A DNA stretch of 64,000 nucleotides from contig PKWU01000045.1 of NCBI GenBank assembly GCA_003132145.1, positions 1,099-65,098 of the forward strand, written 5' to 3'. This document shows positions 53,209 to 64,000 of the stretch, in pieces. Numbering within the stretch: the stretch's first letter is position 1; each line of letters starts with the position of its first letter. The position numbers and the translations under genes are program-made. The DNA comes from Granulicella sp. (GTDB lineage Bacteria; Acidobacteriota; Terriglobia; Terriglobales; Acidobacteriaceae). The notes beneath the pieces were generated by a model. The model was given only the letters and a program-made list of their open reading frames with translations, ran no database searches and had not been told where the DNA came from.

Positions 53209-53223
53209 TATCGTGTCACGATA
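53209..53223. promoter_or_regulatory. Putative MarR operator TATCGT-N3-ACGATA
   Basis: Matches the palindrome in front of the marR start (58731-58749). Confidence 0.55.
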
Positions 53224-53303
53224 TAGTTGAATCAGGATTTGCCGAGCGTGTCGCGTGCCAAGCATTGCAGATCTATAAATAAGTCGATGAGGCAGGATCT
53301 TTC

Positions 53304-53319
53304 TGTGACTAAAGTCCCT
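53304..53319 (+). promoter_or_regulatory. CRP-type box upstream of qNor
   Basis: TGTGA-ctaaag-TCCCT; -10 TATCTT at 53341. Confidence 0.8.
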
Positions 53320-53411
53320 GCATTGCTTTTGACAGCACGCTATCTTGGTTCTGCCGCATCTCCCCAATGGGATCGATCAATGCACTTCACCTTCTTCAAC
53401 GAGGACAAATT

Positions 53412-55691
53412 ATGAACTACAAGCGGTATTGGTGGGCGCTGGCGATTGTCATCGTCGGTTCGTTTATGGTTCTGGGCGGCGAGGGCCGCAAGATGATCGG
53501 CGGAGCGCCGCCCCTTGCCGATGTCTACACCACGGACGGACAGCTTCTCTTCACCGGCAGTTCCATCACGGATGGACAGGGCGTGTGGCAGTCCATCGGC
53601 GGGCAGGAGATCGGCACCGTCTGGGGCCATGGGGCGTACGTTGCTCCCGACTGGAGCGCCGATTGGCTGCATCGCGAATCCGAGTTCCTACTCAACAGAT
53701 GGGCGATCCGCGACGGCGCGCCCGACTTTGCCGCGCTCAATCTGGATCAGCAGGCCATACTCAAGGCGCGGCTGATTCGCGATATGCGAACCAATACCTA
53801 CGACGCATCGACCAATCGCGTCACCATCGACGCCGATCGCGCGGCTTCTTTCACGCAGCTTGCAGCCTATTATTCCAATGTCTTCGCCAGCGGACGCTCC
53901 GAGTATGCCATTCCGCGCGGCGCTTTGACCAACCTTCAGAAGCAGCGCCAGCTTGCGGCATTCTTCTGGTGGACATCATGGGCGGCCAGCACCCAGCGGC
54001 CCGACTCGACCACCACCTATACCAACAACTGGCCACATGAGCCACTGATTGCCAATGAACTCACCTCTGGCGCGTTGCTCTGGAGCATTCTTAGCATTGT
54101 CGGTCTGCTGGCCGGAATCGGCGGCATGGTCTGGTGGTACGCATCGCAGGAGAAGGCCCTTGTTCACGGCCCCTATCCGGCAACAGATCCCTTCCTGGCA
54201 GTGAAGGCGACACCCTCGCAACGCGCCACGATGAAGTACTTCTTCGTGGTCGTGATCCTGTGGGGCGTGCAGATTGCGATGGGCATCCTGACCGCTCACT
54301 ATGCAGTTGAAGGGAGCGGATTTTATGGCTTCCCACTGGACCGCTATCTGCCCTATGCAGTGACCCGAACGTGGCATCTACAACTCGCTATCTTTTGGAT
54401 CGCCACATCGTGGCTGGCAACGGGCCTCTATGTTGGTCCGGCAGTGACCGGACACGAGCCGAAGTATCAACGGCTCGGCGTCAATGTGCTCTTTGGCGCA
54501 TTGATTCTTGTAGTCGGCGGCTCACTCGCCGGCGAGTGGATGGGCATCCAGCAGCGACTGGGCAATATGTGGTTCTGGTTCGGAAGCCAGGGGTACGAAT
54601 ACGTCGATCTTGGAAGATTCTGGCAGATATTACTCTTCATCGGTCTGGTTCTCTGGCTGGCGTTGATGGTGGCTGCGCTCAAGCCTGCGCTGGTTCGCAA
54701 GAGCGAGGACCGCGCCCTGCTCACACTCTTTCTCATCTCCAGCATCGCGATCCCGCTCTTCTATGCCGCTGGCCTCATGTACGGGCAACGCAGCAATCTC
54801 GTCACCGCCGAGTACTGGCGCTGGTGGGTTGTTCATCTCTGGGTCGAAGGCTTCTTTGAAGTATTTGCAACCGTGGTGATCGCGTTTCTCTTCACGCGAC
54901 TCAAGCTGATCGAGATTCGCACTGCAACCAAGGCCGCTCTTTTTTCGACGACGATATTCCTTTCCGGCGGAATCATCGGCACCTTCCATCACCTGTACTT
55001 TGCAGGCGCAACTCCGGCGGTGATCGCTCTGGGCGCAATCTTCAGCGCGTTCGAGGTTGTGCCGCTCACGCTGGTCGGGTACGAGGCGTGGGAGAACATT
55101 CGTCTTGCACAGCCGATGCAGAAGGCGCCATGGATCGCGAACTACAAGTGGCCGATCTATTTCTTCGTCTCGGTCGCCTTCTGGAACCTGGTTGGAGCGG
55201 GCCTCTTCGGCTTCCTCATCAATCCACCGGTCGCGCTTTACTATGTGCAGGGGTTGAACCTCACTCCCCTTCACGGGCACACTGCGCTCTTCGGCGTGTA
55301 CGGAATGCTCGGGCTGGGGCTCACGCTCTTCTGCATGAGGGCGATGGGGCCGGAACGACCGTGGAAGGAGGGGGCGCTCAAGTTTTCCTTCTGGTCTCTC
55401 AATATCGGCTTGAGCCTCATGGTTCTCCTCAGCCTGTTGCCGGTCGGCCTTCTCCAGGCGTGGGCATCGATCCAGTACGGCACCTGGTACGCGCGTTCTG
55501 CGGAGTTTCTGCAAACGGGACACATGCAGGCTCTACGCTGGATGCGTGTCCCCGGCGATGTTCTGTTTGCCGCTGGAGCCGCGCTCTTCGCTTGGTTCAT
55601 CCTCGGCTTGCTGACCGGCCATTCCTACGACGATACAAAGTCCACTGAAGGAGATACATCGTTGCACGATATGAACAATCGGCTCGCGTAG
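53412..55691 (+). CDS. norB: Quinol-dependent nitric oxide reductase (qNor)
   Basis: GTVWGHGAYVAPDW, RTWHLQ, WVVHLWVEGFFE, GTFHH, HGHTALFGVYG, WMRVPGD. Confidence 0.96.
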   Translation: MNYKRYWWALAIVIVGSFMVLGGEGRKMIGGAPPLADVYTTDGQLLFTGSSITDGQGVWQSIGGQEIGTVWGHGAYVAPDWSADWLHRESEFLLNRWAIRDGAPDFAALNLDQQAILKARLIRDMRTNTYDASTNRVTIDADRAASFTQLAAYYSNVFASGRSEYAIPRGALTNLQKQRQLAAFFWWTSWAASTQRPDSTTTYTNNWPHEPLIANELTSGALLWSILSIVGLLAGIGGMVWWYASQEKALVHGPYPATDPFLAVKATPSQRATMKYFFVVVILWGVQIAMGILTAHYAVEGSGFYGFPLDRYLPYAVTRTWHLQLAIFWIATSWLATGLYVGPAVTGHEPKYQRLGVNVLFGALILVVGGSLAGEWMGIQQRLGNMWFWFGSQGYEYVDLGRFWQILLFIGLVLWLALMVAALKPALVRKSEDRALLTLFLISSIAIPLFYAAGLMYGQRSNLVTAEYWRWWVVHLWVEGFFEVFATVVIAFLFTRLKLIEIRTATKAALFSTTIFLSGGIIGTFHHLYFAGATPAVIALGAIFSAFEVVPLTLVGYEAWENIRLAQPMQKAPWIANYKWPIYFFVSVAFWNLVGAGLFGFLINPPVALYYVQGLNLTPLHGHTALFGVYGMLGLGLTLFCMRAMGPERPWKEGALKFSFWSLNIGLSLMVLLSLLPVGLLQAWASIQYGTWYARSAEFLQTGHMQALRWMRVPGDVLFAAGAALFAWFILGLLTGHSYDDTKSTEGDTSLHDMNNRLA

Positions 55692-55790
55692 GCAGCATAT
55701 AGCCGTAATGCACCTGTACCAGCGCGGCGCCTTTCATGGAACACTCCCCACGAAGGCGCCGCGTGCAACCGCATCGACAAGGAGAGCCAA

Positions 55791-56213
55791 ATGAAACGCT
55801 ACTATAGTGAAGGTGAGGCACTTACCAGGCTTCCCGAATTGGATCAGCCATTGCTTCAATCCAATCTACCCGCAGAGATCGAGAATCTACGACTCGCAGA
55901 CTCGTGGCAACGAGGGACAGGGCGGAGCTCCAAGACACTGTTGAATTCTCCAGCTTGTGGCATTTTGCTAATCGCCATGAAGCAGAACACGGAGACGAAA
56001 GAACATCGCGTAGATGGAAGGATCACGATTCACACCCTCGTCGGCCATATAAGGTTGAGGTTGCCCAATCAAATGGTTGAACTTCCTGCAGGCCATCTGC
56101 TGATGCTCGATCGCGGTATTGCGCATGACGTTCAGGCGGTGGATGAGAGTGTCTTCCTGCTCACTATGTGCTGGCATGGTGGCGCCGCCAGAACAGCTCC
56201 TGACAACGTATAG
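55791..56213 (+). CDS. Cupin-fold protein
   Basis: EHRVDGRITIHTLVG, HDVQAVDESVFLLT. Confidence 0.75.
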   Translation: MKRYYSEGEALTRLPELDQPLLQSNLPAEIENLRLADSWQRGTGRSSKTLLNSPACGILLIAMKQNTETKEHRVDGRITIHTLVGHIRLRLPNQMVELPAGHLLMLDRGIAHDVQAVDESVFLLTMCWHGGAARTAPDNV

Positions 56214-56283
56214 GAGGCGCGCGCATTGCGGCTTGCCGCGTGCAACAGAATCCAACAAGTAGCTTCACTCAAAGGAGAAGTTC

Positions 56284-56607
56284 ATGGACTACACATTCCT
56301 GGCCAACCTGCAGACGGAGTTTGCGCTGCCTGAAAAAGGCATCCTGAGCCGCGTGCTGCACAAGGACGAACACGCCAACGTCACGCTCTTCGGATTCTCC
56401 GCTGGAGAGGAACTCTCTGGGCACTCATCGCCGACTCCGGCTGTTCTCTACTTCATCGAAGGAGAGGCAGAAGTCCAGTTGGGAGAGGATAAGGTCAACG
56501 CCCAGCCAGGCTCATTCGTCTACATGCCTCCCATGCTACCTCACGGCATCTCCGCTAAAACGGCGGTTCGAATGCTGCTCGTTCAGATGAAGGCTCCTGC
56601 GCGCTAA
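56284..56607 (+). CDS. Cupin-domain protein
   Basis: FSAGEELSGH, LPHGISA. Confidence 0.8.
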   Translation: MDYTFLANLQTEFALPEKGILSRVLHKDEHANVTLFGFSAGEELSGHSSPTPAVLYFIEGEAEVQLGEDKVNAQPGSFVYMPPMLPHGISAKTAVRMLLVQMKAPAR

Positions 56608-56631
56608 CCTGAGCGCGTCGTTCGCCGCGCC

Positions 56632-58275
56632 TCACGAGTCTTGCCGTGGCGCGCGTTGAAAGCTGCGGCTCCGCTCCGATTCTCGCTCGACCGCACGCCT
56701 CCGTCCCGACAATAACTCCTGCGCGCTGATGCTCCCGCAGATGCGTCCGCTCTCGCGATCGATCACAGGCATGTTCATCACCCGCGTGGTTGCCATCTCC
56801 TCTGCAACGGCGCGGCAGGTCTCATCCGCATAGGCGAAGATGTCGGGCAGCGTCGCTTGCAGGAGGCTCATCGCGAAGTCTTCGATGGACCCTGGCAGTT
56901 CCGTCATCACCTCCGCAACGATCACCGTTTCTAACGGGTCAACACCATACTCGCGCGACAGGTGATAGCCACGACGGCTGAGCTTTTCCGTCAGGATCGA
57001 TCGCGGCATAATCAGCGACGTCACAAGATAGGACGCAGTACACGCAAGCGCCAGCGGCAGCAGGGCCGGCAAAGCATGGGTCAACTCCAGCGAGAACAGA
57101 ATTGCCGTCAGCGGCACGCCCAGCGAGCCGGAGAGCATCGCCCCCATCGCCATCAACGCCCACAGAGCCTGTGTCTCGCCCGACATGTGCGCCAGCCGCG
57201 CCAGCGTCTCGCCAATGGCCGCGCCGATCATCAGCAACGGTGCCAGCACGCCGCCCGACGTTCCCGAACTCAGCGAAAAGGCCCACATCAGCGACTTGGC
57301 TACCAACAGTCCGAGTAGTAGACCCAGTGGCGCATTTCCGCGCAGCAGTTCTGCGATATTGTCGTACCCAACGCCGAGTCCGCGCGGAAAGAAGAATCCC
57401 CCCACTCCGATCCCGATCCCACCGATCGCAGGCCACCACATCCAATGCACACGCAGCCGACCGCAGAGATGCTCGAATGCGTCCTCGAAGCCATACATCA
57501 TGCGGCTCAGCCCAGCCGCCGCGAAGCCGACCAGTATCCCCAATGGGCCAGCAACCAGCATCGTCGGCCATAAGTGAATCGCCGTGTGCATCTCCACCGG
57601 GAAGAGCGGGCCAGCTCCAAGCCAACTGATGCGCAACGCGCCCGCCATGATGCTGGCCACCGCCACCGGAATCAGCGAGCGCGGTCGCCACTCGAAGAGC
57701 AGCAGCTCGACGGCCAGAAGAATTGCAGCCATCGGTGCCGCAAACGTCGCCGACATTCCCGCCGCCGCGCCTGCTACCAGTAGCGTAGTTCGTTCTGCAT
57801 CGGTCAGATGAAGCCACTGCGCCACCAGCGAGCCGAACGCTCCGCCGGTCATAATGATCGGCCCTTCCGCGCCAAACGGACCACCTGAGCCAATCGCGAT
57901 CGCGGCCGAAAGAGGCTTTAATATCGCGACCAAGGGGTCTATACGCGCGCCTCGTAGCAGGATCGCCTCAATTGCCTCTGGGATTCCGTGACCGCGAATC
58001 TTGTCCGATCCATAGTGCGCGATGAATCCCACCAGAAGCCCGCCAATAATGGGAACCAGCGGCATGATCCATGGAGAGAGGGGCGAACCGGCAGGCCCAA
58101 CCATCGCCAGGCTCAGCCGATGGTAGTAGAACAGGTTTGTCATGAGAGCAATCGCCCTCAGGAGCAGGACAGCCAAAGCTGCCGCGCCTATACCAATAAA
58201 GAGCGCTACCCCACTCAGCAGCCATACCCTGCGATTCACCGTAAAGTCGCACAGTGCGGATGGTTGTGATCTCAT
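56632..58275 (-). CDS. CLC-family chloride/proton channel with CBS-like tail
   Basis: GHGIPE, GSGGPFGAEGP, FEW, GTSGGVLAP. Confidence 0.92.
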   Translation of the reverse strand: MRSQPSALCDFTVNRRVWLLSGVALFIGIGAAALAVLLLRAIALMTNLFYYHRLSLAMVGPAGSPLSPWIMPLVPIIGGLLVGFIAHYGSDKIRGHGIPEAIEAILLRGARIDPLVAILKPLSAAIAIGSGGPFGAEGPIIMTGGAFGSLVAQWLHLTDAERTTLLVAGAAAGMSATFAAPMAAILLAVELLLFEWRPRSLIPVAVASIMAGALRISWLGAGPLFPVEMHTAIHLWPTMLVAGPLGILVGFAAAGLSRMMYGFEDAFEHLCGRLRVHWMWWPAIGGIGIGVGGFFFPRGLGVGYDNIAELLRGNAPLGLLLGLLVAKSLMWAFSLSSGTSGGVLAPLLMIGAAIGETLARLAHMSGETQALWALMAMGAMLSGSLGVPLTAILFSLELTHALPALLPLALACTASYLVTSLIMPRSILTEKLSRRGYHLSREYGVDPLETVIVAEVMTELPGSIEDFAMSLLQATLPDIFAYADETCRAVAEEMATTRVMNMPVIDRESGRICGSISAQELLSGRRRAVERESERSRSFQRAPRQDS

Positions 58276-58727
58276 CGAGTCTTCGAACCAGCAGAATCTT
58301 GCGCGGACATCCCGATGCGCTTCAACGCCTTCGCTAGGCGCGGTGCCATCTCTTTCAGCTCCCGTGCATGATCTCCAGCAAGCCTGTCCAGAAGCCGCTC
58401 GCCCTTGCGCGTCACTTGTAATATTGCCCGTCGCCGGTCTCTCGTATCCACAGTTCGTGTCAGCAGCCCTTCGCGTTCCGACCGGTTGACCAGCTCCACC
58501 ACGCTGTGGTGCCGCAGACTGAGCCGTTCTGCTGCATACGCGATCGTCACAGCCTCGCCCTCTGGCGCGCCCGCCACTTGCAACAGGAGCTGGTGCTGCT
58601 GCGGCTGTAGTCCTACAGCTACCGCCGCGCGTTCGCTGAAGTGAAGAAACTGACGCAATTCATAACGAAACTCAGCCAGAGTCCTAAACAGCAATTGCGG
58701 ATCGGGTGCCTTTGATCGGGTCCTCAT
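58272..58727 (-). CDS. MarR-family regulator
   Basis: LAEFRYELRQF, LRHHSVVELVNR, DRRR. Confidence 0.9.
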   Translation of the reverse strand: MRTRSKAPDPQLLFRTLAEFRYELRQFLHFSERAAVAVGLQPQQHQLLLQVAGAPEGEAVTIAYAAERLSLRHHSVVELVNRSEREGLLTRTVDTRDRRRAILQVTRKGERLLDRLAGDHARELKEMAPRLAKALKRIGMSAQDSAGSKTR

Positions 58728-58730
58728 ATA

Positions 58731-58749
58731 TATATCGTTACACGATATA
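58731..58749. promoter_or_regulatory. Perfect palindrome TATATCGT-N3-ACGATATA, probable MarR autoregulatory operator
   Basis: Located 3 bp upstream of the marR ATG. Confidence 0.7.
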
Positions 58750-58862
58750 GAAGCTCCTGCAAACTCCTTGTACATCCCGATCGCCGGTAAACACCATGAA
58801 CTTCGCTTTCGGTCTACTGCATGTTCGATAGGATGCCTGAGTGGCCATCGCTCTCCGCCCGC

Positions 58863-58878
58863 AGTGACTTAAGTCCTA
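58863..58878 (+). promoter_or_regulatory. CRP-type box upstream of the membrane ferredoxin
   Basis: AGTGA-cttaag-TCCTA; -10 TATCGT at 58901. Confidence 0.78.
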
Positions 58879-58924
58879 CACGGAGCTTCTCTCTTTTGGG
58901 TATCGTGGACAGTAGAAGGATGCC

Positions 58925-60055
58925 ATGTCTACCGGAACCGCGTTTCCACTCGCAGCAACCACATCCGAAAGACTCCCCGCGAAACAGAGAAAGCCTCTCG
59001 TACGCCGCATTTTGCGTGACCGCTCGCAGCAGGTCCGCCGCTCGGTGCAGCTCGCGTTTCTTATGTTGAATGCGTGGATCGCGGTGGAGTTCCTGATGTG
59101 GGTGCGCTACTTTGAGAGTCAGGGCCAGACTCGCTATGTTGAACGCCCGGCGGGGGTGGATGGATGGCTTCCCATTGCAGGCCTGATGAATCTGAAGTAC
59201 TTTATTGTGACCCATCATGTCCCGGCGGTCCATCCCGCGGCGATGGTACTGGTCGCCATATTTCTGCTATCGAGCCTGCTGCTGAAAAAGACGTTCTGCT
59301 CCTGGCTCTGCCCCGTGGGCACGATCTCCGAGGGCCTGTGGAAGCTCGGCCGCAAACTTTTTTACCGCAACTTCACTGTGCCCCGTTGGCTCGATCTCCC
59401 CCTGCGCAGCCTGAAATATCTGCTGATGGCCTTCTTCGTCTTCATTGTGATCAGCATGTCGGCAGAGGCCCTGAACGACTTCCTGATTGCGCCCTTTGGC
59501 ATCATTGCAGACGTCAAGATGCTCAACTTCTTCCGCGAAATTAGCCTGCTTGGGATGGCAGTCCTTGCGTTGCTAATGTTGCTCTCTGTCGTTATCCAGA
59601 ACTTCTGGTGCCGGTTTCTCTGTCCCTATGGGGCGTTGATGGGCATCGTCTCCACGTTGAGTCCGGTGAAGATTCGTCGCGATGCGCAGGCCTGCATCGA
59701 CTGCGGCAAGTGCAATAAGGCCTGCCCATCCAGCCTTCCGGTGGACCAGCTGCTACAGATTCGGTCCGTGGAGTGCACCAGTTGCATGGAGTGCGTCGCG
59801 GTCTGTCCGGCAGAGAACGCGCTGCAGCTCTCCCTGCCGCCGCGCAGGCACAACGACCGCGCTGAGTCTGTGAGAAGTGCATCTGCCGCTCGCTGGCGAT
59901 ATCGCGCGCTCGATCCACGGCAAGTTGCGGCGATTCTGGCGATCATCTTCTTCGGACTGATCGGGATGGCTCGCGCAACCGGACACTGGCAAACCCATGT
60001 TTCGCGCGATATGTATATGCAATTGGTGCCCCATGCGGATGAATACGGCCATTAG
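58925..60055 (+). CDS. Membrane 4Fe-4S binding protein (NapH/MauN-like)
   Basis: FCSWLCPVG, WCRFLCPYG, CIDCGKCNKACP, CTSCMECVAVCP. Confidence 0.9.
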   Translation: MSTGTAFPLAATTSERLPAKQRKPLVRRILRDRSQQVRRSVQLAFLMLNAWIAVEFLMWVRYFESQGQTRYVERPAGVDGWLPIAGLMNLKYFIVTHHVPAVHPAAMVLVAIFLLSSLLLKKTFCSWLCPVGTISEGLWKLGRKLFYRNFTVPRWLDLPLRSLKYLLMAFFVFIVISMSAEALNDFLIAPFGIIADVKMLNFFREISLLGMAVLALLMLLSVVIQNFWCRFLCPYGALMGIVSTLSPVKIRRDAQACIDCGKCNKACPSSLPVDQLLQIRSVECTSCMECVAVCPAENALQLSLPPRRHNDRAESVRSASAARWRYRALDPRQVAAILAIIFFGLIGMARATGHWQTHVSRDMYMQLVPHADEYGH

Positions 60056-60065
60056 ATCCATCCAG

Positions 60066-60770
60066 CTAAGGCATTGGCGTCAGAAGCGCACTGAGACCCT
60101 TCTTGTCCTTCACTACAATTTCGCGGGCATCCACATCCAGCAGGCCTTCAGCCTGCAGCCGCATCAGGTTGCGCGAGATTAGTTCGCGCACGGTTCCAAG
60201 CTGGTTGGCCAACTCCTGGTGGCTGGCGGGCAGCAGGAATTCGATGCCGCGCCCGGTCTGCTTGCCTTCGCTCTCCGCGAGACGCAGCAGGGTAGAAATA
60301 AGCCGCTGACGGATGGTGGTGAATGAAAGCTCCTCGATGATGCCGACCAGCCGCCGCAGGCGAGCACCCACTACGGCCAACACCTTGAGCGCAACTGCGG
60401 GGTGCTCCATGCAGTAAGCCTGAAAGTCGCGCCGCGGGATGAAGGCAATCTCAGCGTCTTCAACGGCCATCGCGGACGCGGGGTATGGCCCGCCGTCAAA
60501 GACTGGCAACTCGGCGACAGACTCGCCGGGATGGTTTATGGCCAACACCTGTTCGCGGCCGCCAAGCGATGTCTTGAAGATGCGAATCTTGCCACGCGCG
60601 ATGATGTGCAGGCCATGGCAGAGCTCACCCTCGGTGAAGAGCAGTTCCCCGGCGCGAAACGGCTTGCGCACGGTGCGGGCAGCCAGCAGTTGTATCTCTG
60701 CCGGGGTCAGGTTTGACAGTAGCGCGGTCTTTCCCAGGACAGCCGCCAGACCCATGCGTTCAGTGCTCAT
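60066..60770 (-). CDS. Crp/Fnr-family regulator (HcpR/DNR-like context)
   Basis: cNMP-binding fold; HTH SHQELANQLGTVRELISR; no FNR Cys cluster. Confidence 0.93.
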   Translation of the reverse strand: MSTERMGLAAVLGKTALLSNLTPAEIQLLAARTVRKPFRAGELLFTEGELCHGLHIIARGKIRIFKTSLGGREQVLAINHPGESVAELPVFDGGPYPASAMAVEDAEIAFIPRRDFQAYCMEHPAVALKVLAVVGARLRRLVGIIEELSFTTIRQRLISTLLRLAESEGKQTGRGIEFLLPASHQELANQLGTVRELISRNLMRLQAEGLLDVDAREIVVKDKKGLSALLTPMP

Positions 60771-60879
60771 GTAGGAAAGTCTAGCAGCGCGCGTTGGTGT
60801 GTGTTGAGACAACGAGGCTAATGACGCGATGCCCGGAGAGGCAATCTACTCCGGGCATCGACGATCATGCATCGCACCA

Positions 60880-62523
60880 TTACGCAAGCATCGCGGCAAG
60901 GTCTGCATCCGCCGTAGTGATGGCCATCAGGTTGAACTTCTCATTCAGCAGCGCAAGCACGCCAGGCGAGAGGAACGCAGGAAGCGTTGGCCCGATGCGC
61001 ATGTTGCGCACGCCCAGGTGGAGCAGCGTAAGCAGCACAGCGACGGCCTTCTGCTCGTACCACGACAGCACCAGCGACAGCGGTAGATCATTCACGCCAC
61101 AATCGAAGGCCTTGGCCAGCGCGAGTGCAATCTGTAGCGCCGAGTAGGTATCGTTGCATTGTCCAACGTCGAGCAGCCGAGGCAGTCCGCCGATCTCGCC
61201 AAAGTCAAGCTTGTTGAAGCGGAACTTGCCGCATGCCAGGGTCAGGATGAGGCAGTCCTTCGGAATCGACTCAGCCAGCTCCGTATAGTAGCTACGCCCG
61301 GGACGTGCCCCGTCGCAACCGCCAATGAGGAAGAAGTGGCGAATCGCACCGGCCTTCACCGCATCGATCACGCGGTTGGCCACGCTGAGCACTGCATTGT
61401 GTCCGAAGCCGACCGTAATCTCCTCGCCAGAGCCGTCTTCCGCGTAGCCCGGAGCAAGCAGGGCCGCCGCAATCACCGCGCTGTAGTCCTGATCCGCGAT
61501 GTGCTGCACCCCCGGCCATGCCACCGCACCCGAAGTAAAGATGCGCTGCTTGTAGGCAATCGCAGGCTGCTGAATGCAGTTGGAGGTCATCAGTATTGCG
61601 CCGGGAAATTCGGCAAACTCATCGGCCTGATCGGTCCATGCACCACCGTAGTTCCCCGCCAGATGCTCATATGCCTTGAGCTTCGGATAGCCGTGTGCGG
61701 GCAGCATCTCGCCGTGCGTGTAAACCTGAATGCCGAGCCCCTTCGTCTGTTCCAGCAACGCATAAAGATCGTGCAGATCGTGCCCCGAGACCAGAATCGC
61801 CTTTCCCTTGCGCGCATGAAGCCGAACCTTCGTTGGCTGTGGATGGCCAAACGTTTCAGTATGCGCCTTGTCCAGAATCTCCATAACGCGGTAGTTCAAT
61901 TCGCCGACAGCGAGCGCAGTGGCAAGAAGCTCTTCGACCGTGGGTGCAGAATGGGTGAGGAAGTCGAGGATCTCGTGAATCTTCGCAAACGTCAGCGGAT
62001 CGCCCGCGCCCAGCGCCAGTGCATGCACTGCGTAAGCCGCCACTCCCTTGATTCCGTAGAGCACCAGTTCCTGCAGGTTGGATATCTCTTTTCCATCTGT
62101 CAGAAACCGCGCGGGAAGAAGAACCTGCTTGCCCTGTGCGAGTAATCCATCCAGCGTTGAAGCAGGGATCCATGCAGCCGCACCACCAAGCTCGACCGGC
62201 ACAACGCCCGCCTCGACCGCCGCGCGCTCATACAGATCGCGCGCCGCATCGCGCGTCGCAATCGCCTTAGCAATCAGCCCCACCAGCCGCTCTGGATCGA
62301 AGTTGACGTTGGTCATCGTAGCGAAGACCGCCTGAATCGTAAACGCATCGATCTCTGGGTCGGATGCGCCCTGCTGTCGCGCGCGATACGCGTACATGGA
62401 GATACCCTTGACGGCATGAATCAACAGATCCTGAAGTGTTGCCGTGGTCTCGTCTTTGCCACAGACACCAATCGTCTGACAGCCTACGCCCTGGGAAGTC
62501 TGTTCACACTGGTAGCAAAACAT
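60880..62523 (-). CDS. hcp: Hybrid cluster protein (hydroxylamine/NO reductase)
   Basis: MFCYQCEQT...C...GVCGK, THGEMLPAH, GQCND, SWYEQKA. Confidence 0.97.
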   Translation of the reverse strand: MFCYQCEQTSQGVGCQTIGVCGKDETTATLQDLLIHAVKGISMYAYRARQQGASDPEIDAFTIQAVFATMTNVNFDPERLVGLIAKAIATRDAARDLYERAAVEAGVVPVELGGAAAWIPASTLDGLLAQGKQVLLPARFLTDGKEISNLQELVLYGIKGVAAYAVHALALGAGDPLTFAKIHEILDFLTHSAPTVEELLATALAVGELNYRVMEILDKAHTETFGHPQPTKVRLHARKGKAILVSGHDLHDLYALLEQTKGLGIQVYTHGEMLPAHGYPKLKAYEHLAGNYGGAWTDQADEFAEFPGAILMTSNCIQQPAIAYKQRIFTSGAVAWPGVQHIADQDYSAVIAAALLAPGYAEDGSGEEITVGFGHNAVLSVANRVIDAVKAGAIRHFFLIGGCDGARPGRSYYTELAESIPKDCLILTLACGKFRFNKLDFGEIGGLPRLLDVGQCNDTYSALQIALALAKAFDCGVNDLPLSLVLSWYEQKAVAVLLTLLHLGVRNMRIGPTLPAFLSPGVLALLNEKFNLMAITTADADLAAMLA

Positions 62524-62588
62524 CGTGTATACCGTCCTGATCTAAATTGAGCAGCAACCCGATCCTATGGACGGCATGGTGCGATTAC

Positions 62589-62604
62589 AGCGACTTAAGT
62601 CACT
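62589..62604 (-). promoter_or_regulatory. CRP-type box upstream of hcp
   Basis: Minus strand AGTGA-cttaag-TCGCT; -10 TAGGAT at 62567-62562. Confidence 0.82.
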
Positions 62605-62645
62605 CGGAAGCATGGGAACAGCGATTCCATTTCAACTTTGCACGG

Positions 62646-62661
62646 AGTGACTAAAGTCGCT
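62646..62661 (+). promoter_or_regulatory. CRP-type box upstream of ric
   Basis: AGTGA-ctaaag-TCGCT; -10 TATGGT at 62683. Confidence 0.82.
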
Positions 62662-62707
62662 GCAATCCAAACCGGTGCTCTCTATGGTGATTACAAGGGA
62701 GACCATC

Positions 62708-63496
62708 ATGACAGACCCCACACAGACCGTTCGCGAGATTGCACTGGAACAACCGACCTCGATCCGGGTATTCGAGCACTATGGGATTGGCTACTGCTGC
62801 GGTGGGCGCAAGCCGCTCGCCGAGGCATGCGCAGCCAGCAATCTTGAAGTGGAGGCGGTGCTTGCCGCATTGGAGAATGCAGCCAAGAGTTCAGTTTCAA
62901 CAACGGAAGAGTGGTCGCAAGTCTCACTGGAGAAGCTGAGCGGGCACATCGTAGCCACGCATCACGCGTACGTGAAGAGCGAACTGCCCCGGCTGGCTGT
63001 TTTGGCACAGAAGGTGGTTCTTCGCCACGGCGATACGCAGGCCGAGCTTCCGCTGATCCAGACCAAACTCGCGCAACTGGACGAGGAACTGAGTCAGCAC
63101 CTGTTGAAGGAAGAGGCCGTTCTGTTTCCCTACGTGGTCAAGCTGGAGCGTGCATTAAAGACCGGCAGCGCGATGCCGCATGGATGCTTTGGCACAGTGG
63201 CCAACCCGATCGCCATGATGACGGCGGAGCACGATGCGGCCCACGCGCTCATCGCCGACATTCACCAGCTCAGCAATCATTACGTCACCCCAGTCGGCGC
63301 ATGCCCCACATATCACGCGTTCTACGACGGCCTGAAGGAGTTCGAGCAGGATCTTTGCCAGCACATTCACCTGGAAAACGACATTCTGTTTCCCCGTGCG
63401 ATTCAACTGGAGACAGGGCCCCCCAAACCAACAGATAGCTGGAAAACCGCCTGTGGTAGTTCGATCCCAGCGGAAGTCGTGAATAAGTTGAGCTAA
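62708..63496 (+). CDS. ric: Iron-sulfur cluster repair di-iron protein (RIC/ScdA/YtfE)
   Basis: YCCGG, HHAY, HLLKEEAVLFP, EH, HIHLENDILFP. Confidence 0.95.
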   Translation: MTDPTQTVREIALEQPTSIRVFEHYGIGYCCGGRKPLAEACAASNLEVEAVLAALENAAKSSVSTTEEWSQVSLEKLSGHIVATHHAYVKSELPRLAVLAQKVVLRHGDTQAELPLIQTKLAQLDEELSQHLLKEEAVLFPYVVKLERALKTGSAMPHGCFGTVANPIAMMTAEHDAAHALIADIHQLSNHYVTPVGACPTYHAFYDGLKEFEQDLCQHIHLENDILFPRAIQLETGPPKPTDSWKTACGSSIPAEVVNKLS

Positions 63497-63583
63497 TAGT
63501 GCAGTGAATCAGCCCCCGAGCGATTTCGCAGGGAATTGAATAAGCTCAGTCCAATACGCGGGAAGAGGCACTGGTGAGACGAT

Positions 63584-63697
63584 TAGAGCATTTTCGGTAA
63601 TGGTGTAGTCCGTTGTGGAGCGAGCAACAGCAGATTCCTCCGCTTCGCTACGGAATGACAAACAAAATTGGTCTATAGCAATTCCGAAAATGCTCTA
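63584..63697. mobile_element. 114-bp TA-flanked MITE variant containing a family-A repeat
   Basis: TA-GAGCATTTTCGG...CCGAAAATGCTC-TA. Confidence 0.75.
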
Positions 63698-63716
63698 GTG
63701 CAAACACGCCAAAAAA

Positions 63717-63776
63717 GGACTTAAAATCCGCAGACCGTAACAGGTCGTGGGAGTTCAAGTCTCCCTCCGGGCACCA
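63717..63776 (+). pseudogene. 3' fragment of tRNA-Leu(TAA), probable att site
   Basis: GGA-CTTAAAA-TCCGC, variable arm GACC/GGTC, T arm GGGAG-TTCAAGT-CTCCC, TCCGGGC-ACCA. No 5' acceptor strand or D arm upstream. Confidence 0.85.
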
Positions 63777-63827
63777 TGGGACCATCGTTCAACGACAGCT
63801 TACTGCCACAAAACAAAACCATCGGGC

Positions 63828-64000
63828 CTAGATCCACTTCTTCCACAGCAGCCAGACCTTCACGGTCTGGGTAAGGCCTGCGTAGGCAAGCAGCGTCAGC
63901 AGCAGGAGGGGCCAGTAGAGCGCAGGCAGGTGTATGAGGCCCAGCGAAGAGGCCAGCGGGGAGAACGGAAGCCACGCTCCGAAGGCCATGATGGCCACTG
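63828..64000 (-). CDS. mgtA: C-terminus of a Mg2+-translocating P-type ATPase, partial
   Basis: VAIMAFGAWLPFSPLASSLGLIHLPALYWPLLLLTLLAYAGLTQTVKVWLLWKKWI*. Confidence 0.8.
   Translation of the reverse strand, partial: VAIMAFGAWLPFSPLASSLGLIHLPALYWPLLLLTLLAYAGLTQTVKVWLLWKKWI

Follow-up and report, generated by a model that had tools for sequence, protein, structure and literature searches.

Sequence evidence for a Crp/Fnr-family regulator as predicted class II activator of a nitric oxide defence gene set in an Acidobacteriaceae genome

The window analysed here is a whole 64-kb stretch of a 3.17-Mb assembly (89 contigs, 96% complete) whose nearest named relatives are Acidobacteriaceae, for example Terracidiphilus and Telmatobacter, and it matches peat metagenome runs. 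It holds genes for a nitric oxide reductase, a membrane ferredoxin, a hybrid cluster protein and an iron-sulfur repair protein, each with a 16-bp palindromic box upstream, and among them the gene of a Crp/Fnr-family regulator. A preliminary description of this DNA had proposed that the adjacent regulator activates the nitric oxide defence set from class II positions. The genome scan, the conservation of the boxes, the promoter geometry and the recognition helix reported below support it as the predicted class II activator of these genes.

The quinol-dependent nitric oxide reductase (qNor, 759 residues) is encoded at 53412..55691 on the + strand and is recognised by the Pfam families NorB_cytochrome_c-like (1.1e-63) and COX1 (3.5e-58); a GAGGA ribosome-binding site stands before its ATG at 53412, and its orthologues align from residue 1. 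Two small genes follow on the same strand (55791..56607), encoding, according to the family search, a protein of 140 residues without family and a cupin of 107 residues; between the cupin gene and the ferredoxin gene come those of a MarR regulator and a CLC channel. The ferredoxin gene (58925..60055, + strand) encodes a membrane polyferredoxin of 376 residues of the NapH/MauN/NosR C-terminal type (Pfam Fer4_5 and Fer4_10; 2.8e-26 against NCBIfam NapH/MauN, which is below the curated cut-off), a candidate quinol-linked electron donor. The - strand carries the regulator gene (60066..60770; 234 residues, cNMP_binding and HTH_Crp_2) and hcp (60880..62523), whose product, the hybrid cluster protein Hcp of 547 residues, matches NF003658 at 8e-235 with 781 bits. 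The ric gene (62708..63496, + strand) encodes a RIC/YtfE di-iron protein of 262 residues for iron-sulfur centre repair (TIGR03652, 7e-65, 219 bits, above cut-off).

The four boxes are TGTGACTAAAGTCCCT upstream of qNor (53304-53319, + strand, centre 53311.5), AGTGACTTAAGTCCTA upstream of the ferredoxin gene (58863-58878, + strand, centre 58870.5), AGTGACTTAAGTCGCT upstream of hcp (62604-62589, - strand, centre 62596.5) and AGTGACTAAAGTCGCT upstream of ric (62646-62661, + strand, centre 62653.5, 57 bp from the hcp box). Each is accompanied by a -10-like hexamer on the same strand as the gene downstream (4/4). For qNor this is TATCTT at 53341-53346 (+), 29.5 bp from the box centre with a predicted start near 53353; for the ferredoxin gene TATCGT at 58901-58906 (+), 30.5 bp from the centre with a predicted start near 58913; for hcp TAGGAT at 62567-62562 (-), 29.5 bp from the centre with a predicted start near 62555; and for ric TATGGT at 62683-62688 (+), again 29.5 bp from the centre, with a predicted start near 62695. 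The 16-mers and the TAnnnT hexamers had been listed in the preliminary description, and all of them were found in place. The pattern WGTGACTWAAGTCNNW matches the window only at these four boxes, compared with 0.00 matches expected from 100 dinucleotide-preserving shuffles, and a search for a perfect palindrome with up to three mismatches returned the same four sites (0.07 expected in shuffles). Since their -35 regions are poor and their -10 hexamers have 3-4/6 matches, the four promoters look dependent on an activator.

A second, unrelated palindrome was also detected in the cluster. One copy, TATCGTGTCACGATAT, is at 53209-53224, some 95 bp before the qNor box, and another, TATCGTTACACGATAT, at 58733-58748, close in front of marR; none is expected from shuffles. 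This palindrome is probably the MarR operator, which would add a second input to the qNor region.

The conservation of the boxes was examined in 80 Acidobacteriaceae loci recovered with a profile of the regulator, whose orthologues there are 70-88% identical; the set takes in the cultured Telmatobacter bradus, Acidipila rosea and Occallatibacter savannae. A box was scored as present where GTGAC-N4-GTC occurred with at most one mismatch no more than 300 bp upstream of the gene. By this measure, the box precedes hcp in 12/12 relatives, ric in 77/77, qNor in 24/26 and the NapH-like ferredoxin gene in 29/30, so the orthologous upstream regions bear out the sites seen in the window. It was scored for marR in 3/8 (mostly weak or divergent-promoter matches), for the CLC gene in 3/8 (weak) and for the cupin gene in 2/10. 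The cupin gene stands after qNor in several relatives and has no box in 8/10 of the cases; in the window neither the 140-residue nor the cupin gene has a box of its own, and both are probably in one operon with qNor. Across the 914 kb of the relatives' loci we counted 159 boxes with a properly spaced -10, of which at least 122 lie directly upstream of members of the hcp, ric, qNor or ferredoxin families or of the cupin gene, and most of the remaining ones are these promoters again, with the reading frame called wrongly.

To describe the geometry, 120 unique promoters from the relatives were aligned on the box. The TAnnnT hexamer starts at +29.5 in 95 of them and at +30.5 in 19, that is, in 114/120. 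With the -10 placed at -12 to -7, the box centre therefore falls at -41.5, the class II position; the phasing thus supports the predicted class II placement first suggested for the four window boxes, all of which (4/4) have the same distance of 29.5 or 30.5 bp. The T, A and T of the -10 carry 1.1-1.25 bits of information and the 17 intervening positions 0-0.3 bits, indicating that the spacer has diverged to saturation while box and -10 stayed in phase. A C-T-G is conserved at +6.5 to +8.5 (109, 112 and 110 of 120), the place expected for the TTG of a -35 hexamer given a spacer of 17 bp.

The motif itself is asymmetric relative to the promoter, with an invariant distal half, GTGAC, and a proximal half that reads GTC(G/C/A)C or GTTAC. 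The spacer had been called unusually conserved, and this applies to its last three bases: the AA before GTC is near-invariant (112 and 118 of 120) and the base before it is always A or T. It does not apply to the first spacer base, the one after GTGAC, which can be T, A or C. The motif had also been considered lineage-specific, an idea that has to be given up: it is family-wide in the Acidobacteriaceae and reaches a more distant sister family of the same order, in which regulators 42-54% identical to the one studied here adjoin ric and have TGTGACCGAAGTCATA-type boxes with the proximal half-site GTCAT.

The regulator gene has a different kind of promoter. A strong extended -10, TGCTAGACT, unlike those of the target promoters, lies at 60786-60778 on the - strand; as only 7 nt separate it from the ATG at 60770, the mRNA is probably leaderless. 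The same TGCTAGAAT element is found in relatives directly before the regulator start codon. Most relatives have in addition a box whose centre lies 14.5 bp upstream of the TGCTAGAAT element, near -26.5, a placement suited to repression. This box is missing from the regulator's own promoter in the window, as it is in 9/9 loci with the arrangement of the window, in which the regulator gene immediately follows hcp in the same orientation. Because of this absence, and since one RNA contig spans the hcp-regulator gap, read-through from the hcp promoter may substitute for autoregulation.

Could the boxes at the target genes also be operators for repression, with the protein sitting over the -35 and keeping RNA polymerase away until a signal releases it? 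The box does overlap the -35 position, and the site at about -26.5 in relatives implies a protein that is probably able to repress. Yet the target promoters have weak -10 and -35 elements and an exact 29.5-bp phasing, the latter being the signature of class II activation and needless for occlusion, and the characterised relatives DNR, NnrR, NssR, HcpR and DnrT activate targets of this kind. We consequently infer activation at the target genes and regard their repression as decidedly improbable.

The specificity of the motif was evaluated over the whole assembly. The exact core GTGACTWAAGTC has 7 copies in the 3.17 Mb, where base composition predicts about 0.3. Four are the window boxes, one lies upstream of an L-lactate dehydrogenase gene (ldh) on contig C29, and the other two belong to a 46-bp tandem array on contig C12. 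Thus 5/7 copies sit at promoters of the regulon gene set. A position weight matrix scan, as the preliminary description had recommended, was made with a matrix built from the relatives only, from which the window sites were excluded, and placed the four boxes at ranks 1, 2, 5 and 6 of about 6.3 million positions. Frequent random matches, which had been named as a possible objection, are not what the scan returned, and most of the other high scorers fall within coding frames, for example on contigs C60, C20, C7, C71, C53 and C13. A matrix derived from the distant family f2 alone over-fits the CCGAAGTCATA shared by its sites and ranked window sites 7th and 38th; it was not used as a test.

The regulator belongs to the Crp/Fnr superfamily, with matches to PF00027 (1.5e-22), PF13545 (1.9e-16) and PF00325 (3.5e-06), all above the cut-offs. 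Its recognition helix, R195-E196-L-I-S-R200, aligns through GTVRELISRNL with GTSRETVSRVL of Thermus CRP, which confirms the earlier observation that RELISR keeps the CRP residues R180, E181 and R185 (E. coli numbering), and the helix GTVRE(L/V)(I/V)SRN is invariant among the orthologues. With these residues in the helix and GTGA in the boxes, the protein has the features of a CRP-type DNA reader. According to the published covariation rule, R180 pairs with the G and E181 with the A of the half-site (PMC1274295), and a RELISR helix is therefore predicted to read GTGA. The inner C....G of the box matches the TTGAC-N4-GTCAA type of HcpR box.

A Pfam search found six HTH_Crp_2 proteins in the genome, including the regulator, and so overturned an intermediate result by tblastn, which had detected no paralogue and left the regulator as the genome's only Crp/Fnr protein. 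The R-E-x-x-x-R helix occurs only in the regulator; the five others have RSRVSF or RPTITT. Intergenic CRP-like palindromes with different spacers were also noticed at C3:15656, C9:5164, C11:9388 and C73:25661/25856, an example being TGTGATCTAGGTCACA before a Rieske/cytochrome b cluster, and these may be targets of the five other Crp-type paralogues.

The distribution of the genes points in the same direction as the helix. In all 80 loci the regulator gene is linked to some of ric, qNor, ferredoxin, hcp, cupin and marR-CLC, in many different gene orders and orientations. Within the genus defined by GTDB, a regulator orthologue at least 80% identical occurs only in this genome (G000) and in G015, and ric in three genomes only, two of them being G000 and G015 and the third 63% complete. 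Based on the helix, the covariation rule, the helices of the paralogues, the co-occurrence with ric in the genus and the universal linkage, there is a high probability that the protein encoded at 60066-60770 reads the boxes. The choice of the adjacent regulator as the one acting at these promoters is thus well founded, as it is linked in 80/80 loci and is the sole R-E-x-x-x-R protein of the six.

Regulator, ric and qNor are each present in 2-3 of the 25 genus genomes, a patchy distribution of the whole block. ARAGORN found no intact tRNA gene at 63300-64000 of the window, consistent with the description of 63717-63776 as a tRNA fragment only. Taken together, these two results fit an accessory, horizontally mobile block.

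Sequences resembling the box also occur away from promoters. A family of hairpins similar to repetitive extragenic palindromes (REP), GGGACTAAAGTCCC / gcggcGGGACTAAAGTCCCGCC / gcggcGGGACTAAAGTCCCGCCctttcaaaac, has at least 10 copies genome-wide (e.g., C7:13538, C16:3710, C29:29289, C76:5434 and C86:67384), and its core is one base off the qNor box core. The array at C12:10056-10208 consists of four tandem 46-bp units, each with TGTGACTA(A/G)AGTCC(A/C)G; it lies directly 3' of the stop codon of a gene for a 511-residue membrane protein, has no -10 at +29.5, and could be repeat-derived or a cluster of decoy sites. Both have the core GACTWWAGTC (W, A or T) in common with the boxes. It could be argued that the 16-mers are themselves dispersed copies of a hairpin similar to REP or to miniature inverted-repeat transposable elements, without a regulatory role, or that another factor reads them, given that the hairpins and the array carry a near-identical core and that there are five other Crp-type proteins in the genome. 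But the repeats have GGGAC/GTCCC arms, conserved flanks of their own and no -10 at +29.5, the boxes persist at the orthologous promoters of 80 genomes amid diverged surroundings, and the paralogues are without the R-E-x-x-x-R helix. Conservation, geometry and paralogue helices thus largely refute this explanation, which we consider extremely improbable. The hairpin family and the C12 array were also considered as the origin or the equivalent of the four boxes, and this was rejected on the basis of conservation and spacing.

The fifth promoter of the proposed regulon is outside the window, at C29:2434-2502, where the box CCCGACTTAAGTCACA (C29:2434-2449) lies upstream of ldh and is followed by a -10, TAATCT, exactly 29.5 bp from the box centre with a predicted start near C29:2483, then by a GGAGGA ribosome-binding site and the ATG. 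In three relatives the cluster itself contains ldh, equipped with a box and a -10 of its own. Nitric oxide-inducible ldh is known from Staphylococcus aureus, and the placement of ldh under this regulon would parallel it. In relatives, boxes also precede a multihaem cytochrome c gene, divergent from qNor in T. bradus (L037:10009-11289), and a gene for a fusion of cytochrome b561 with a molybdopterin oxidoreductase (L073); neither gene is present in the window.

The transcript data came from peat metatranscriptomes, which contain contigs identical to hcp and show that this gene is expressed in situ. Two of the three contigs covering the 5' part of hcp end at 62546 and 62528, that is, 9-27 nt inside the predicted start at 62555, although assembled contigs, as these are, cannot map 5' ends. 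For qNor the metatranscriptome contigs gave nothing usable, and for the ferredoxin gene one internal piece. At 63596-63700 of the window, metatranscriptome contigs of several runs were piled up to depths between 10 and 218, and many of their ends run off into unrelated sequence; the pile-up marks a short repeat common to many organisms and not a locally expressed gene.

Putting the sequence evidence together, we consider it likely that the cluster is a nitric oxide defence regulon under a class II activator. The 234-residue regulator would bind as a dimer to (A/T)GTGAC-N-W-A-A-GTC(G/C)C(T), each box being centred about 41.5 bp upstream of the transcription start, and from this position it would recruit RNA polymerase to weak promoters. 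Its predicted targets are qNor, with the hypothetical and cupin genes behind it, the NapH-like ferredoxin gene, hcp and ric, plus ldh on the other contig. The regulator gene would be transcribed from its own box-less and probably leaderless promoter, to which read-through from hcp may add.

The inducing signal would be nitric oxide or nitrosative stress, since the targets make up the classical nitrosative-stress set (hcp, ytfE/ric, nitric oxide reductase and an hcp-linked ferredoxin). The sensor would be the N-terminal beta-roll domain, in which the arginine that binds cyclic adenosine monophosphate (cAMP) has been lost. The Arg82-Ser83 cassette of cAMP-type CRP is absent: PYPAS aligns with ERSAS of Thermus CRP, and in the orthologues DGGPYPAS is invariant, with Tyr-Pro in place of the Arg-Ser that binds the cAMP phosphate. 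FNR proper binds an oxygen-labile 4Fe-4S cluster through four cysteines, three N-terminal and one central, and reads TTGAT-N4-ATCAA; this pattern is also absent, as only C51 and C120 are conserved, there is no N-terminal cysteine cluster and the box is GTGAC-N4-GTC. Our best guess, by analogy with DNR, is that nitric oxide is sensed, perhaps through heme.

The same protein, sites and architecture would also be compatible with low oxygen or redox state as the signal, as with FNR or with DnrT under DnrS, in which case the circuit would pre-arm nitric oxide-handling and fermentative genes. DnrT works in an oxygen-responsive circuit and has no known ligand (PMC5748679), ldh is a typical anaerobic gene, and C51, C120 and H123, all invariant in the orthologues, could form a redox-sensitive site. 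On the other hand, 4/5 promoters serve hallmark genes of nitrosative stress, as in the HcpR and NsrR regulons (PMC1274295), the regulator does not have the four-cysteine motif of FNR, and the genome scan gave no respiratory or fermentation regulon beyond ldh. We therefore think it unlikely that oxygen or redox state is the signal.

Some of the data weigh against a nitric oxide-responsive class II activator. An RNA-library contig, X26 (62398-62622, depth 3.7), covers the hcp box and ends 67 nt beyond the start predicted for hcp, which might reflect carried-over DNA or a different transcript. At ldh the orientation of the box is reversed compared with the other promoters, the strong half-site being the promoter-proximal one. 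Box-like sequences are also found in the 46-bp tandem array and, one base off, in the REP-like hairpins. Finally, DnrT, the closest relative, is reported to be oxygen-insensitive, and no ligand of it is known (PMC5748679).

A broader interpretation combines several of these features, and as a whole we find it doubtful. The regulator of the Acidobacteriaceae may stand for a subfamily related to DnrT and so far undescribed, whose pocket of the invariant DGGPYPAS, Cys51, Cys120 and His123 may detect nitric oxide or another nitrogen-oxide signal by a chemistry unlike that of the heme sites in DNR and in HcpR of Porphyromonas. One and the same dimer may be a class II activator at -41.5 and an autorepressor at about -26.5, and may read an intrinsically asymmetric site with a strong distal GTGAC, a degenerate proximal half and an invariant AA in the spacer. 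The REP-like hairpins and the four-unit tandem array could then titrate the regulator.

The Acidobacteriaceae are among the most abundant bacteria of acidic peat and forest soils, and their transcriptional regulation is barely known; in our literature search we found no description of a regulator of hcp or nor genes in Acidobacteria. The analysis adds a concrete pair of regulator and operator, a family-wide motif, predicted start sites and a small regulon, which is also carried by the cultured strains Telmatobacter bradus DSM 23630, Acidipila rosea DSM 103428 and Occallatibacter savannae AB23. As qNor turns nitric oxide into nitrous oxide (N2O), the switch bears on the release of N2O by non-denitrifying soil bacteria. 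Crp/Fnr regulators of nitrogen-oxide stress genes without the cysteines have been widely predicted since 2005, and the findings extend the HcpR/DNR paradigm without changing it.

Among the known systems, the HcpR1 regulons of Desulfovibrio, Geobacter/Desulfuromonas and cyanobacteria (Rodionov et al. 2004, 2005; PMC545781, PMC1274295) share the organisation of a Crp/Fnr regulator without the FNR cysteine motif, encoded beside hcp, with palindromes upstream of hcp and of a ferredoxin-like gene (in cyanobacterial HcpR1 also norB) and a box that obeys the R180-G and E181-A rule. Under the operational definition of Rodionov (2005), the protein studied here is an HcpR, as it has no FNR cysteine motif and lies beside hcp, here and in 12/80 loci, with the palindrome upstream of hcp in 12/12 and of the ferredoxin gene in 29/30; this likeness is one of definition and does not extend to branching with the HcpR1 clade (Desulfovibrio/Geobacter) or the HcpR2 clade (Clostridium/Bacteroides/Porphyromonas). 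No chain named HcpR was found among the best 60 of the 73 PDB sequences matched, and no NCBIfam equivalog reaches its cut-off for the regulator. The box, of a GTGAC-N4-GTCAC-like type, is a hybrid of the published HcpR1 consensuses TGTGA-N6-TCACA and TTGAC-N4-GTCAA. In contrast to HcpR1, the proximal half-site is degenerate (GTC(G/C)C) and the spacer has a near-invariant AA, the predicted regulon adds qNor, ric and ldh, and the host is an Acidobacteriaceae soil bacterium, from a group outside the coverage of those studies.

The closest characterised relative that we found is DnrT of Thermus thermophilus, with 37% identity over 222 residues (E 2e-35). DnrT is an activator of the DNR subgroup that recruits RNA polymerase at nitrogen-oxide respiration genes and also represses other operons (PMC5748679), and its gene lies beside dnrS and narCGH on the NAR1 plasmid. 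Both proteins have P-YPASA in place of the cAMP-binding Arg-Ser and no FNR cysteines. They differ in the helix, which is P-E-A-V-S-R in DnrT and R-E-L-I-S-R here, in the partner, since DnrT works with the GAF/BTAD protein DnrS and no DnrS-like gene adjoins the regulator here, and in the targets, which are nar, nrc, nir and nor respiration genes for DnrT and detoxification genes in the predicted regulon.

DNR of Pseudomonas and NnrR of alpha-proteobacteria provide the precedent for nitric oxide-dependent class II activation of nor and nir genes from a box at about -41.5, and their regulons also contain a dnrN/ric-type gene. Unlike the protein described here, they read FNR-type TTGAT-N4-ATCAA through an E-x-x-S-R helix without R180, and the regulator scores higher against cAMP-type Thermus CRP (102 bits) than against P. 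aeruginosa DNR (PDB match, E 2.8e-19, 73 bits). The enterobacterial NsrR regulon (hmp, ytfE and hcp-hcr) has nearly the same targets, namely hcp, ytfE/ric and an enzyme that consumes nitric oxide, but NsrR is an iron-sulfur repressor of the Rrf2 family, so that protein family and logic differ. The class II promoters of E. coli CRP (-41.5) agree with those of the window in R180/E181/R185, the GTGA core and the distance of 29.5 bp from the site centre to the -10, whereas the regulator has Tyr-Pro instead of the cAMP-binding arginine and a predicted regulon that is small and dedicated rather than global.

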